Below the pieces are notes generated by a model. It saw only the letters and a program-made list of their open reading frames with translations, had not been told where the DNA came from and did no database searches. Made by a program: the position numbers and the translations under genes. From Alphaproteobacteria bacterium (GTDB lineage Bacteria; Pseudomonadota; Alphaproteobacteria; Bin95), in contig JAPOJR010000002.1 of assembly GCA_029978325.1 (NCBI GenBank), forward strand, positions 2,717 to 66,716: 64,000 nucleotides of DNA. The letters run 5' to 3'. This document shows positions 25,838-29,162 of this stretch, piece after piece; the stretch's first letter is position 1, and each line of letters opens with the position of its first letter.

Positions 25838-27895
25838 ATGGCTGAAACCTATTTTCTGACCAAGACAACCGTCGATCCCGGCCAGCTGATTTCAATCAAC
25901 GACAGCGTCGCGCTGGAACAGTACGAGGCGTTGCGGCATTTTCTGGTGACCCGGATCGGGCGCGACGCAGCCGACCTGTTTGCAGAGCCGGTATTGAGCC
26001 GCGGCAATGGCGCTTCGGCCACTACGGTCTCCTGGTACACGACGCGCGCTGGCCAGGGCGTCCGGCTGGCCGACCTGTCCAGCGAAGCGCGGCAGTCGGT
26101 CGAAGCGACGCTGAAACGGCAACTCGCGGCAGTATCGGAAGCGCTTTCCGATCCGAACTTCGGCCCGCTGTTGGGCGCTGCCCTATACCTGGACAGCGAT
26201 CGCGATATCTGGGTGGTGGATAACCGCCCGTTTTTGACCAATTGGGGCCTTGCTCCGGCCGCAAGCCTGGCGTCGCAATCGGCGCGCAACCAGCATTTCG
26301 CAGCGACGATCGGCCGGTTTTTACCACTGGCGATGGCGCCCGCGCTCTCGCAGGACGAATGGGCCTCCAGAGGCTATGCCGCGGCGGCGGCCGCGATGCC
26401 TGCCGCCCCCGAACCGGCTTCACAAAGCGTTTCCGTCAGCGACGCGACAGCGGCGTCGGCCCCGGTCGCGCCACGGCAAGACAGCGCCGCTGCGCCCGTA
26501 ATCCCTGCTGCAGCAGCGGGAACGACAGTGCTCATCAGCGACCGCCGCTGGCGATGGCGCTGGATTCCTCCCGTTGCTTTGCTGGTCTTGTTCGCGATCG
26601 TCCTGGTTTGGCTGCTGTGGCCGGGCACGCTATTGTATCCGCCACGTCCGGCCGCTTCGATCATCACCGACGATGCCGTCGCCGAAGCCGCACGCGCCGG
26701 CAATCGGGCGCTGGAGGACCGCATCGCGCAACTGCGCGCTGCCATCGACGGCGCGGTCTGCACGCCACAAGGCGACCTGGTGCTGCCGGATGGGACAACG
26801 CCGCGGGGTCAGACTCCGGCGCCGCAACAGCAGTCCGACAATGGCGACCCTGGCTCCGCGTCCGCCGCAACGCCCGAAGGGCCGGTTCAGGGCCGGCCTG
26901 ATGCCTTGACGCCGCCGCCGCCGTCCCAACTGATGACGCCACCCGCAGACGGCCAGGACCCGGTATCGCTGCTCACGAAGTTGGAGCAAAGTACCGTTCT
27001 GGTCCTGGCTCAGGGGCAGGAAGACGCCGGGCTTGGCACAGGGTTTTTCATTGCCCCCGACCTGCTGGTGACGAACTATCACGTCGTAAAACCGGCACTG
27101 ACCGGCGGCGCCATCGCCGTCACCAACCAGACCCTTGGCCGCCTGACGAAAGCGGAACTCATCGCAAAGTCCGGCCCTTTGGAAACCAACGGCGACGATT
27201 TCGCATTGTTGCGGGTCCCGGGCGGCCAAATGGCGTTCTACGCGATCCGATTGCCGGCGGAATCGCTGCGGCTGCAACAGGTGATCGCTGCCGGCTACCC
27301 CGGATTCGTGCTTGAAACCGACAGTCATTTCAAAGCGTTGAAAAAAGGCGACGCCGGCGCAATTCCTGGGCTCGTCGTAACCGACGGCATCGTTAACGCC
27401 GAGCAACAACTGGCCGCCTCCACCAAGGTTCTGGTGCATACGGCGCATATTTCGCCCGGCAATTCCGGCGGTCCACTGGTCGATTCCTGCGGCCAAGTGG
27501 TCGGCATCAACACATTTATCCGCAACGACCAGAAGTCGCTGAATTCTCTGAATTTTTCGCTGACGAGCGCAGACCTGCAGGATTTTCTGAAAGCGAACAA
27601 CGTTTCGGTCGCGACGACGTCCGCCCCGTGCGCCCCCAGCATTTCGCGCCCAACGCCGCCTGCTTCCGCCTCCTCGGCGCCGAATGCGCCGGAGGCGCCC
27701 TCTACACCCTCTACACCCCCTACACCCTCTACACCTGCGGCACCCACAGCGCCGACAGCACCCGCCGCAACGCCACCACCGCCCGCCGCTCAGGCCGCTC
27801 CGACACGGCCTGCGCCACCCGCCGCAGCGTCCAGGCCATCCGGCGCCGGCGAACCGCAGGGTCCGGCGTCGCGCTCGAACACCGACCGGTGGTAG
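25838..27895 (+). CDS. Membrane protein: SrfA-like N-domain, TM, coiled coil, trypsin-like (S1/HtrA-type) serine protease domain, Pro/Thr/Ala-rich tail
   Basis: Protease motifs are GTGFFIAPDLLVTNYHVV (His codon 27080-27082) and HISPGNSGGPLVDSCGQVVGINTF (Ser codon 27464-27466). The TM segment is IPPVALLVLFAIVLVWLLW. The N-domain is similar to that of the next gene (LFAEP...WY...). Confidence 0.75.
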   Translation: MAETYFLTKTTVDPGQLISINDSVALEQYEALRHFLVTRIGRDAADLFAEPVLSRGNGASATTVSWYTTRAGQGVRLADLSSEARQSVEATLKRQLAAVSEALSDPNFGPLLGAALYLDSDRDIWVVDNRPFLTNWGLAPAASLASQSARNQHFAATIGRFLPLAMAPALSQDEWASRGYAAAAAAMPAAPEPASQSVSVSDATAASAPVAPRQDSAAAPVIPAAAAGTTVLISDRRWRWRWIPPVALLVLFAIVLVWLLWPGTLLYPPRPAASIITDDAVAEAARAGNRALEDRIAQLRAAIDGAVCTPQGDLVLPDGTTPRGQTPAPQQQSDNGDPGSASAATPEGPVQGRPDALTPPPPSQLMTPPADGQDPVSLLTKLEQSTVLVLAQGQEDAGLGTGFFIAPDLLVTNYHVVKPALTGGAIAVTNQTLGRLTKAELIAKSGPLETNGDDFALLRVPGGQMAFYAIRLPAESLRLQQVIAAGYPGFVLETDSHFKALKKGDAGAIPGLVVTDGIVNAEQQLAASTKVLVHTAHISPGNSGGPLVDSCGQVVGINTFIRNDQKSLNSLNFSLTSADLQDFLKANNVSVATTSAPCAPSISRPTPPASASSAPNAPEAPSTPSTPPTPSTPAAPTAPTAPAATPPPPAAQAAPTRPAPPAAASRPSGAGEPQGPASRSNTDRW
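27698..27733 (+). repeat. In-frame 9-nt tandem repeat encoding PST-PST-PPT-PST
   Basis: The sequence ccctctaca ccctctaca ccccctaca ccctctaca can be read directly in the low-complexity tail of the protease gene. Confidence 0.7.
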
Positions 27896-27899
27896 CCCC

Positions 27900-29162
27900 A
27901 TGGCTTTGCGTCGACTAGCCTCCACCCGCACTGCCGACTATTCGCCGCTTGGTTCCGCGGGACAGCGCTCGTTCGAGCTGGTCCGCCGGGAAGCGGCCGG
28001 CCTCGGGCCAGCCCACGAGGCGCTATTCGCCGAGCCATCGCCAAGCCCGAAGGGCGATGAAGTCGACTGGTACGCTAACGCGTCAGGCCCAATCCGCCCG
28101 TTATCGTCAGCATCGCCGCAGGAACAGGAGGCCGGCAAAGCCCGCCTGCAGGAACTGGTCGGCGATATTCTCGCCGCCGCCGAGCGTCTGGGGGGAAGTG
28201 CGGATCAGGCACAGCGCCGCCTGGGCGAGGCCCTGCGCAATGCCGTAGAGGTGCCGGACCCTGGCTGCGTGTACCTGGTCGGCGACCAACCGGTCATCGT
28301 CGCGTGGGCGCATCACCGCAACACCAACGCACCGGCACGGGGAGTCCTGGCGGCATTGGCGCCGCACGCCCGCACTGCAGCGACCATCGCTCCGGTTGCG
28401 TCGATCGCCGCGGCGCCGCCGGCGCCCGCGCAGGACAGCCCCGCCGCCGCGACAGTTCTGGCTTCGGTGCCCGTAGCGTCCGACGCCGGCAGCTGGGGTT
28501 GGCTATGGTGGCTGTTGTGGTTGGTGGTCGGCGCGCTGGCCCTGGTCATCTTGTGGACGCTGCTGACCGCATGCGGGACCCGCTGGCTGTTGCCGCTGGA
28601 CTATTGCCCGCGGGCCGAGGCGGTGACGGCCGCGCCCGAAGCGGACCGCCGCGATGCTTTAGAGGCGGAATTGTACCGGTTACAGCGAGAGCTAAGCCAC
28701 GCCGACCAGGCCTGCAGGCCGCAACCGCCGCCGGCCCCTCCAGAACCGCAACCGCCAGAACCGCAACCGAACGAGTTCGATTCTCGCGTTCAGAACGAAG
28801 GCGGCCAGACGAATGCCGCGCTCCGCATCACTCTGATCTGGGACACCTACAGCGACCTGGATTTGCACCTCTATTGCTCGGGCGGGCATCTTTTTTACCG
28901 GAACCGGTCGGCCTGCGGCGGTCAACTGGACGTCGATAAAAATGCGGGCCGGGATATCAGCCCAAAGCCGGTCGAGAACATCTACTTCACCGCTCCGCCC
29001 CCACCCGGGACCTACAAAGTTGTCGTCCACAACTATTCGCAAAAGGGCCGGAACCCGAACAATTTCCAGCTGCAAATCCTGAAGAACGGGGAATCCACCG
29101 TGAAGCGAGGCTCGATTTCACGGCCGAAAGACAGCCTCACCTTCAGTTTTACCATTCCTTGA
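27900..29162 (+). CDS. SrfA-position membrane protein: SrfA-like N-domain, Trp-rich TM, coiled coil, Pro linker, DUF2135-like C-terminal domain
   Basis: It starts 4 nt after the previous stop. The N-domain carries LFAEPSPSPKGDEVDWYANASGP and VYLVGDQPVIVAWAHH. The TM segment is WGWLWWLLWLVVGALALVILWTLL. The C-terminus reads LRITLIWDTYSDLDLHLYCSGGHLFYRNRSACGGQLDVDKNAG...GTYKVVVHNY. The 27684 start in the ORF track lies inside the previous gene and was rejected. Confidence 0.7.
   Translation: MALRRLASTRTADYSPLGSAGQRSFELVRREAAGLGPAHEALFAEPSPSPKGDEVDWYANASGPIRPLSSASPQEQEAGKARLQELVGDILAAAERLGGSADQAQRRLGEALRNAVEVPDPGCVYLVGDQPVIVAWAHHRNTNAPARGVLAALAPHARTAATIAPVASIAAAPPAPAQDSPAAATVLASVPVASDAGSWGWLWWLLWLVVGALALVILWTLLTACGTRWLLPLDYCPRAEAVTAAPEADRRDALEAELYRLQRELSHADQACRPQPPPAPPEPQPPEPQPNEFDSRVQNEGGQTNAALRITLIWDTYSDLDLHLYCSGGHLFYRNRSACGGQLDVDKNAGRDISPKPVENIYFTAPPPPGTYKVVVHNYSQKGRNPNNFQLQILKNGESTVKRGSISRPKDSLTFSFTIP

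Follow-up and report, generated by a model that had tools for sequence, protein, structure and literature searches.

The srfABC genes have carried the label 'virulence factor' since 2000 without a mechanism. A preprint of September 2026 (bioRxiv 10.64898/2026.09.18.752743) describes canonical SrfA as a SrfA-N domain with a kinase-like, non-catalytic fold, followed by a disordered region, a transmembrane (TM) helix, a 'novel domain' and a lipocalin-like SrfA-C domain. It models SrfA-N as a platform for SrfB and then SrfC, and notes a cassette of ABC, vWA and SUMF1 genes. Paralogues, proteases and alternative heads go unmentioned in this preprint and likewise in the other literature searched. 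Here, we describe a srf locus in a 64,000-nucleotide stretch of an alphaproteobacterial contig (JAPOJR010000002.1, assembly GCA_029978325.1, forward-strand positions 2,717 to 66,716; hereafter the window), in which three SrfA-derived genes, termed P0, P1 and P2, lie directly upstream of a single srfB-srfC pair. These genes probably encode a set of SrfA paralogues that belong, as bitopic subunits in the inner membrane, to one SrfABC envelope apparatus. Because the preprint already models SrfA-N as a SrfB/SrfC platform, the adaptor idea is not new, while the multi-paralogue, multi-head organisation of SrfA appears to be.

The SrfA-derived genes P0, P1 and P2

A preliminary description of the window, made from its sequence, had reported two tandem paralogues (25838-27895 and 27900-29162) that share a SrfA-like N-domain and carry different periplasmic heads, and had overlooked a third paralogue, P0. 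The three genes and their parts are listed below by window position, with structural assignments taken from AlphaFold2 (AF2) models and their predicted local distance difference test scores (pLDDT) where indicated.

25070-25828, + strand: P0, SrfA paralogue without SrfA-N (N-less), 252 aa; NCBIfam SrfA_fam positions 264-437
25838-27895, + strand: P1, SrfA-N / TM / stalk / HtrA-like protease, 685 aa
25838-26263, + strand: P1 SrfA-N domain, aa 1-142; hhalign against the P2 family and Enterobacter SrfA
26264-26392, + strand: P1-family-specific conserved extension, aa 143-185; R150, H153 and T157 invariant in the P1-family alignment
26561-26617, + strand: P1 TM helix, aa 242-260; hydropathy 2.63, preceded by RRWRWRW
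26669-26761, + strand: predicted P1 periplasmic stalk helix, aa 278-304, then conserved Cys308; AF2 helix
26972-27637, + strand: P1 HtrA/DegP-like serine protease head, aa 379-600; Trypsin_2, with H415, D454 and S543
27900-29162, + strand: P2, SrfA-N / TM / stalk / beta-sandwich head, 420 aa; canonical srfA position
27900-28325, + strand: P2 SrfA-N domain, aa 1-142; SrfA_fam E = 1.6e-24, AF2 pLDDT >90
28497-28574, + strand: P2 TM helix, aa 200-225; AF2 helix and hydropathy
28629-28715, + strand: predicted P2 periplasmic stalk helix, aa 244-271, then conserved Cys272; AF2 helix
28800-29159, + strand: P2 head, aa 301-420, all-beta sandwich; AF2, weakly DUF2135-like

P1 and P2 share a homologous N-domain of ~140 residues. 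Pairwise BLASTP of P1 47-160 against P2 42-165 yielded 25% identity over 129 columns, which is not significant (E = 2.3), so that a comparison of profiles was needed. Homologues were gathered for P2 (66) and for the N-terminal region of P1 (nine, all with a trypsin domain), and N-domain profiles of nine P1-family and 54 P2-family sequences were compared using hhalign. The two profiles aligned over 133 columns (P1 2-142, P2 1-142) with a probability of 99.5% and E = 4e-22, compared to a maximum probability of 0.9% and a minimum E of 0.06 for 30 column-shuffled profiles and one reversed control profile. When 22 N-domains of the two families are aligned jointly, five residues (E45, P46, W57, P131 and W136 in P2 numbering) never vary; they fall inside the LFAEP, DWY/SWY and PV..W blocks. 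The sequence blocks that the preliminary description had aligned by eye (LFAEP...DWY/SWY, and VVDxxP...NWG with LVGDQPVIVAW) all lie within the profile alignment.

The same domain is found in annotated SrfA. With the RefSeq 'SrfA family protein' of Enterobacter sp. 638 plasmid pENTE01 as reference, hidden Markov models (HMMs) of the P2-family and P1-family N-domains matched at E = 5.8e-30 (hhalign 99.3%) and E = 1e-12 (hhalign 95.7%), respectively, and the reference holds IDWYAP and LVGGKPVMSFWGF, in agreement with the DWY and PVI-x-W blocks previously ascribed to enterobacterial SrfA. The NCBIfam model SrfA_fam (NF040486) matches P2 6-291 (E = 1.6e-24) and P1 32-347 (E = 7.9e-11); both matches end at ~299-303 of the 438 model positions, and neither protein has a SrfA-C domain. 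A similarity arising by chance or from the composition of Ala/Pro-rich, high-GC proteins, for which the pairwise BLASTP value could be cited, has a negligible probability and is excluded by the hhalign result with its controls, the SrfA matches and the five invariant residues. P1 and P2 are paralogues with a genuine SrfA N-domain, and their homology and architecture, as read from the sequences, can be taken as near-certain.

Behind the N-domain and a disordered linker, both proteins have one TM helix, a stalk helix with a Cys and a Pro-rich linker, as had been proposed and as hydropathy and AF2 indicate. In P1, Cys308 is nearly invariant in the P1-family alignment and the linker follows the stalk. 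The head is, judged by its sequence, an HtrA-like serine protease whose triad is intact: Trypsin_2 matches residues 400-557 (Pfam, E = 2.6e-22), and H415, D454 and S543 are nearly invariant in the family, the Ser543 codon lying at exactly the position predicted beforehand (27464-27466). Among PDB sequences, the head is most similar to HtrA, MucD and DegQ, with E as low as 8.7e-10. Pfam found no PDZ domain in P1, which ends in a Pro/Thr/Ala-rich tail; an in-frame tandem repeat at 27698-27735 (9 bp x4.2) encodes the Pro/Thr-rich part of this tail. In the close relative L001, P1 has 676 aa, nine fewer.

The AF2 model of P2 (34 sequences) has a mean pLDDT of 82.7, with the N-domain (1-140) above 90 and an all-beta head (300-420) at ~96. 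Residues 143-199 form a disordered linker (pLDDT <50) before the TM helix, Cys225 and Cys236 lie near the membrane, and C225, C236 and C272 are nearly invariant in the P2-family alignment. The acidic and Asn residues D319, D321, D346, N348 and E359 of the head are invariant. The all-beta character ascribed earlier to the P2 head was thus borne out; its likeness to DUF2135 is weak and below threshold, the PF09906 match reaching 16.5 bits (E = 0.009; 15/48 model positions) against a cutoff of 22 bits. A Foldseek search of the P2 model against the PDB returned nothing at E<=1e-3, the best match being a DUF4425 beta-sandwich (3.5e-3), and because no PDB fold match is significant, the head remains a generic beta-sandwich. 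In this search with the whole P2 model, rather than the N-domain alone, the kinase PknB appeared at rank 44 (E = 0.29, probability 0.14), so the modelled kinase-like fold of SrfA-N was neither reproduced at significance nor excluded. The PEPQP linker of P2 is encoded by an in-frame tandem repeat at 28740-28769 (15 bp x2), and the nine residues missing from P2 in L001 (411 aa) lie in this linker.

P0 consists of a short N-terminus, a TM helix (aa 29-47), a stalk helix with Cys99, a Pro-rich linker and a Cys-rich SrfA-C head (aa ~121-252) with an LMQGCW motif. Its SrfA_fam match covers model positions 264-437 (E = 1.8e-13), and an HMM built from its head matches Enterobacter SrfA 354-451 (E = 2.6e-14), while the corresponding HMM of the P2 head (Head2) does not match Enterobacter SrfA. 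These sequence matches identify P0 as the canonical lipocalin-like SrfA-C head without a SrfA-N domain, and since it carries the C-terminal part of SrfA, the locus holds three SrfA-derived genes. Canonical SrfA is in effect split, with SrfA-C on N-less P0 and new heads on two N-bearing paralogues. In L001, gene calling gives the P0 orthologue 234 aa; the true start of P0 may be Met19 at 25124.

Predicted topology and distribution of SrfA-N proteins

A cytoplasmic location of SrfA-N and a periplasmic one of the heads, as suggested before, are indicated by several observations. Signal peptides are absent from all paralogues, and the sole TM helix comes after a folded domain of 140-185 residues. 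Two loci, L039 (9923-12382; Pelagibius sp.) and L056 (9962-12448; a Rhodospirillales metagenome-assembled genome, MAG), encode 820-aa proteins consisting of SrfA-N, FHA (E = 1.9e-14), an ABC ATPase (ABC_tran, E = 1.2e-29) and an ABC-2 permease, with no TM helix between SrfA-N and the ATPase. With such a fusion, SrfA-N may be able to bring an exporter to SrfB/SrfC; the fusion gene lies ~15 kb downstream of the srf cassette. A soluble protein (P0165; L083 415-1932, on a JGI metagenome contig of 2.6 kb) combines SrfA-N with a middle domain and TIR_2. The TIR module of P0165 is elsewhere fused to kinases, Hsp70, TPR, LRR, WD40 and others, and its combination with SrfA-N, a singleton on a short contig, is treated as an anecdote. 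As SrfA-N is fused without an intervening TM helix to cytoplasmic FHA, ABC nucleotide-binding and TIR domains, it is itself predicted to be cytoplasmic. The heads (HtrA-like protease, VWA and Cys-rich beta domains) are typical extracytoplasmic modules. The P1 TM helix is flanked by four Lys and Arg residues on its N-side and one on its C-side, and the P1-family means (2.18 versus 1.27) fit the positive-inside rule with the N-terminus in.

To survey relatives, one genome per GTDB species was scanned with a pattern, yielding 79 loci whose stop-to-stop open reading frames (ORFs) were annotated with HMMs built here. The loci are nearly all from Alphaproteobacteria (Rhodobacterales, Rhodospirillales, Reyranellaceae and Acetobacteraceae), with a few labelled Desulfovibrio or Lawsonia, and the closest match to the window has 59% identity. 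SrfA-N was followed by Head2 in 59 ORFs, by trypsin in 51, by SrfA-C in 35, by VWA in four and by VWA plus Head2 in one; a further 32 genes were N-less SrfA-C. A TM helix is present in 100% of the 59 Head2, 51 trypsin and 35 SrfA-C proteins with SrfA-N, and a Cys follows the stalk in 58/59 (as a C-x-P motif), 51/51 and 35/35 of them, respectively, as well as in 29/29 TM-bearing N-less SrfA-C proteins.

In the window, the N-less SrfA-C, SrfA-N/trypsin and SrfA-N/Head2 genes are followed by srfB and srfC and then by bitopic, VWA and ABC genes, so that P2 occupies the srfA position beside srfB, as noted before. The complete trio stands upstream of srfB-srfC in ~29 of the 79 surveyed genomes (Rhodobacterales and Rhodospirillales), and the pair of SrfA-N/trypsin and SrfA-N/Head2 genes lies upstream of srfB in ~13 more. 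The gene order of the window is shared with L001-L003, three metagenomic contigs with P2 homologues of 91-93% identity. Cereibacter plasmids carry the trio as well, labelled in RefSeq as 'hypothetical protein / serine protease / hypothetical protein'. Other combinations include three N-bearing paralogues with canonical SrfA adjoining srfB (L013, L071, L076 and L078), SrfA-N/trypsin with canonical SrfA (L009 and L017) and SrfA-N/VWA with canonical SrfA (L062, L075 and L080). Whatever the number of SrfA paralogues, srfB-srfC is always single in the survey. L010 (a Rhodobacterales MAG) and L020 hold the paralogue set in duplicate ahead of a single srfB-srfC pair; L010 has four N-bearing paralogues (two with trypsin, two with Head2), two N-less SrfA-C genes, and N-less Head2 and trypsin genes.

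Tandem arrays of 3-5 genes for SrfA-N with SrfA-C, detached from srfB-srfC, were observed in L059, L064, L067-L069 and L077 (Reyranellaceae, Vineibacter and related), some including a fifth, 'PCN...GVTRNRHY' head. L059 and L075 come from the same MAG, in which srfBC is present elsewhere from the detached array. Such arrays in Reyranellaceae and Vineibacter would fit independent jobs for the paralogues, with SrfA-N as a self-association or regulatory domain unrelated to SrfB/SrfC docking, P1 as a membrane-tethered HtrA-like quality-control protease and P2 as an unrelated envelope protein whose gene is close by coincidence. Periplasmic proteases of the HtrA type that are anchored in the membrane, DegS and MarP among them, do act alone. 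However, P1 and P2 genes lie directly upstream of srfB-srfC in ~45 surveyed loci, genomes with detached arrays keep a srfBC locus, as the MAG of L059 and L075 does, and AlphaFold3 (AF3) modelling puts canonical SrfA-N on SrfB, which renders independent jobs unlikely.

The system is widespread: an exhaustive profile search with SrfA-N yielded 2825 clusters (50% identity) at E<=1e-3, and SrfA-N occupies residues ~1-155 in nearly all of the best 150 of these. Among the other heads are Sel1 repeats (P0159) and a fifth type, rich in beta structure (P0065, P0151 and P0178), and two proteins (P0045 and P0046) carry two Head2-like domains each that, at ~32 bits, pass the Pfam DUF2135 threshold. In P0076 (733 aa), two tandem SrfA-N domains precede a TM helix and a VWA head. 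On Enterobacter sp. 638 pENTE01, a 'VWA domain-containing protein' (WP_223297209.1; L084 6166-7332) encoded directly upstream of canonical srfA consists of SrfA-N, a TM helix and VWA; unannotated SrfA paralogues with alternative heads therefore occur also in Enterobacteriaceae. In L074 and L081 (Desulfovibrio / Lawsonia MAGs), canonical srfA, srfB and srfC come after a trypsin-like gene that lacks SrfA-N. The association with a protease reaches beyond Alphaproteobacteria, there without SrfA-N fusion.

Selection on the heads and a possible mechanism

The preliminary description had seen in the shared adaptor and its swappable modules the pattern of a diversifying conflict or effector system, in which a constant SrfA-N adaptor would carry rapidly exchanged, polymorphic periplasmic heads engaged in an arms race. 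Family-wide, the range of modules on the chassis is indeed broad (SrfA-C, Head2, trypsin, VWA, VWA plus Head2, Sel1, the fifth beta-rich head, FHA-ABC and TIR), and one TIR fusion exists. Protease, VWA, FGE, Sel1, FHA and TIR domains are typical of NTPase-centred conflict systems (NTPase, nucleoside triphosphatase). In contrast, the same trio is fixed in ~29 genomes and the P1/P2 pair in ~13 more, the heads occurring together as a set and not replacing each other, and the TIR fusion is a single case on a 2.6-kb contig. The heads are also conserved like the N-domains and SrfB/SrfC: median identities to the window among 48-55 orthologues are 44.7% for the P2 N-domain, 40.2% for the P2 head, 42.2% for the P1 N-domain and 49.8% for the P1 head, compared to 51.5% for SrfB and 45.5% for SrfC.

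Ratios of nonsynonymous to synonymous substitution rates (dN/dS), computed against the contig with a 91-93% identical P2 homologue, are 0.11 for the P2 N-domain, 0.13 for the P2 head, 0.13 for the P1 N-domain, 0.04 for the protease, 0.03 for SrfA-C and 0.07 for SrfB. With values of 0.03-0.13, the heads give no relaxed or positive signal, and relaxation is confined to the disordered cytoplasmic linkers (0.30-0.57). The heads are under purifying, not diversifying, selection. Among the neighbours, nothing resembling an immunity or cassette gene was recognised, small ORFs lying outside the systematic examination, and PADLOC returned no defence-system match for SrfA, SrfB or SrfC, its sole match being a generic protease domain. 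A diversifying system is thus very improbable and, for this lineage, largely refuted. The earlier observation was confirmed and its interpretation partly supported: one adaptor does carry varied heads across the family, the modules having been shuffled over deep time, while in this lineage they appear as fixed, complementary subunits.

For the trio as subunits of one SrfABC envelope apparatus, a mechanism of shared docking and hetero-oligomerisation is plausible. The N-domains of P1 and P2 would dock on the single cytoplasmic SrfB/SrfC pair, as modelled with AF3 for canonical SrfA, and the stalks would associate via their helices and Cys residues, recruiting N-less P0. One SrfB/SrfC NTPase module would in this way be coupled across the membrane to a trio offering proteolysis and two binding modules, with the VWA protein, the FGE-like protein and the MacB-like ABC transporter encoded alongside as its partners. 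The coupling could run either way, with cytoplasmic nucleoside triphosphate (NTP) hydrolysis driving periplasmic action or periplasmic sensing being read in the cytoplasm. SrfA-N would thus be a docking tag of general use, joined to many modules in the course of evolution.

Several points weigh against this proposal. The whole-protein SrfA_fam scores of P2 (87.1 bits), P1 (42.0 bits) and P0 (50.7 bits) lie below the curated cutoff of 150. The AF2 model of full-length P1 (10 sequences) has an overall pLDDT of 53 and an unreliable N-domain; because the model is poor, the identity of this fold rests on the sequence profiles, and the model was left out of the fold comparison. In the P2 family, flanking Lys and Arg residues are ambiguous (1.02 on the N-side versus 1.24 on the C-side). 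Hetero-oligomers or disulfides between stalks are deduced solely from the positions of the conserved Cys residues, and the AF3 model of canonical SrfA-N with SrfB and SrfC is computational, with an interface predicted template modelling score (ipTM) of 0.66 (bioRxiv 10.64898/2026.09.18.752743). Finally, Xenorhabdus stockiae SrfABC is cytotoxic and insecticidal when applied or injected (PMC6950479), which is not readily squared with a cell-bound envelope machine.

The Xenorhabdus result would agree with SrfABC as a secreted or vesicle-delivered tripartite toxin, to which P1 and P2 add further subunits such as a protease toxin; export in outer-membrane vesicles has been argued (bioRxiv 10.64898/2026.09.18.752743), and a dedicated MacB/Lol-like ABC transporter is co-encoded. 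However, all paralogues have a single stable TM helix and no signal peptide, SrfB and SrfC are large cytoplasmic proteins without TM helix or signal peptide, the cassette occurs widely among free-living alphaproteobacteria of sea and soil without known hosts, and the architecture suggests a cell-bound trans-envelope complex. We therefore give an exported toxin little credence and favour the SrfA paralogue set as parts of an envelope apparatus. A more far-reaching version of that idea is offered tentatively, as it is rather more likely wrong than right: SrfA-N might serve universally to dock proteins on the SrfB/SrfC NTPase pair, and the srf cassette might be not a secreted toxin but a cell-bound trans-envelope machine, whose output or sensing modules (HtrA-like protease, beta-sandwich and lipocalin binders, VWA, Sel1, an ABC exporter and even TIR) are set by the SrfA-N fusions present. 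The trio could then form a hetero-oligomeric, disulfide-stapled periplasmic head cluster that is driven or read by cytoplasmic NTP hydrolysis, and the whole might represent a new type of envelope-surveillance or conflict system.

Neighbouring genes and comparison with known systems

The trio belongs to a string of genes on one strand, whose other members are as follows.

23749-24510, + strand: putative lipoprotein, 253 aa; Gly-zipper (Pfam) and coiled-coil matches; first gene of the extended cluster (accessory)
24563-25063, + strand: putative lipoprotein, 166 aa; lipobox-like N-terminus and coiled coil in the translation (accessory)
29184-32339, + strand: srfB; PF07520, E = 0
32293-35010, + strand: srfC; PF10139, E = 8e-256, Walker A motif GPSQAGKS
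35034-36059, + strand: bitopic protein, 341 aa; conserved downstream cassette
36037-38061, + strand: VWA protein, predicted periplasmic; conserved downstream cassette
38058-38819, + strand: ABC ATPase; conserved downstream cassette
38792-40030, + strand: FtsX/MacB-like permease; conserved downstream cassette
40034-41602, + strand: predicted periplasmic FGE/SUMF1-like protein with signal peptide; conserved downstream cassette

From 25063 to 29184, gaps of 4-21 bp separate the genes, which implies tight translational coupling in an operon. P2 starts with the ATG at 27900; an in-frame extension of the ORF back to 27684, which overlaps the P1 tail, is a high-GC artefact. The start of srfC is ambiguous (32293-32350), with the longest ORF overlapping srfB by 47 bp; the L001 orthologue, with 886 aa, is 19 residues shorter by its gene call and begins past the srfB stop, and the true start is probably at ~32350, as in that orthologue. 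The 253-aa lipoprotein gene also heads the cluster in L001, L004 and L005 and adjoins SrfA-N genes in L039, L056, L063 and L065, and the 166-aa lipoprotein gene is kept in L001-L005. The order of the downstream cassette recurs in L001-L003, L084, L085 and most surveyed loci. Its 341-aa product, a fourth bitopic protein present in nearly all srf cassettes, is predicted to have a cytoplasmic N-domain of ~110 residues that is not SrfA-N, a Pro/Lys-rich linker, a TM helix (188-206) and a periplasmic C-terminus, which looks Sel1/TPR-like by eye and has no Pfam match. PDB sequence searches with SrfB and SrfC gave no matches, nor did Rfam and tRNA scans of the whole window.

These results do not reveal the function of SrfABC itself. 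They present SrfA as a family of adaptors in which one chassis (N-domain, TM helix and stalk) takes interchangeable heads; 2-5 of these adaptors accompany a single SrfB/SrfC in many genomes, and on this basis the srf system can be reframed as a modular envelope machine. They also supply experimental handles, namely the protease active site (S543), the conserved stalk Cys residues and the N-less subunit, and tractable hosts, as plasmids of Cereibacter sphaeroides and C. azotoformans bear the same trio. Orthologues now annotated as 'hypothetical protein', 'serine protease' or 'VWA domain-containing protein' can be corrected accordingly.

Among described systems, canonical SrfA (NF040486; Enterobacter sp. 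638 WP_011906515.1, Salmonella STM1593) resembles P1 and P2 in its SrfA-N domain, disordered linker, single TM helix and Cys stalk, in its position upstream of srfB-srfC and in the downstream cassette (bitopic, VWA, ABC ATPase, FtsX permease and SUMF1/FGE). It differs in bearing a lipocalin-like SrfA-C domain with an FLxGxW motif and four Cys residues, where P1 and P2 have a protease or a beta-sandwich and SrfA-C is found on P0, and in being one gene instead of three. Enterobacter WP_223297209.1 and the alphaproteobacterial SrfA-N/VWA proteins follow the same principle of paralogues and share SrfA-N, the TM helix, the Cys and an alternative head; there the head is VWA and the set comprises two genes (SrfA-N with VWA and SrfA-N with SrfA-C), compared to the trio in the window.

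With HtrA/DegP/DegS (MEROPS S1C) and MarP, P1 shares the Trypsin_2 fold, the His-Asp-Ser triad and the GNSGGP motif, and DegS and MarP are, like P1 by prediction, extracytoplasmic and tethered to the inner membrane. Unlike the HtrA family, P1 has no PDZ domain, a cytoplasmic SrfA-N region of ~185 residues, a long stalk and a srf-operon setting, and it scores 59.6 bits against an HtrA-family equivalog cutoff of 416. The likeness of the P2 head to DUF2135 (PF09906) is limited to a short PVEN...G.Y.V motif region, the model covering a fragment of the ~115-aa domain. Finally, polymorphic toxin and swappable-effector systems share with the SrfA family a constant N-terminal module joined to varied C-terminal modules; unlike theirs, the SrfA heads show no rapid diversification, have no recognised immunity genes and are conserved as a set.

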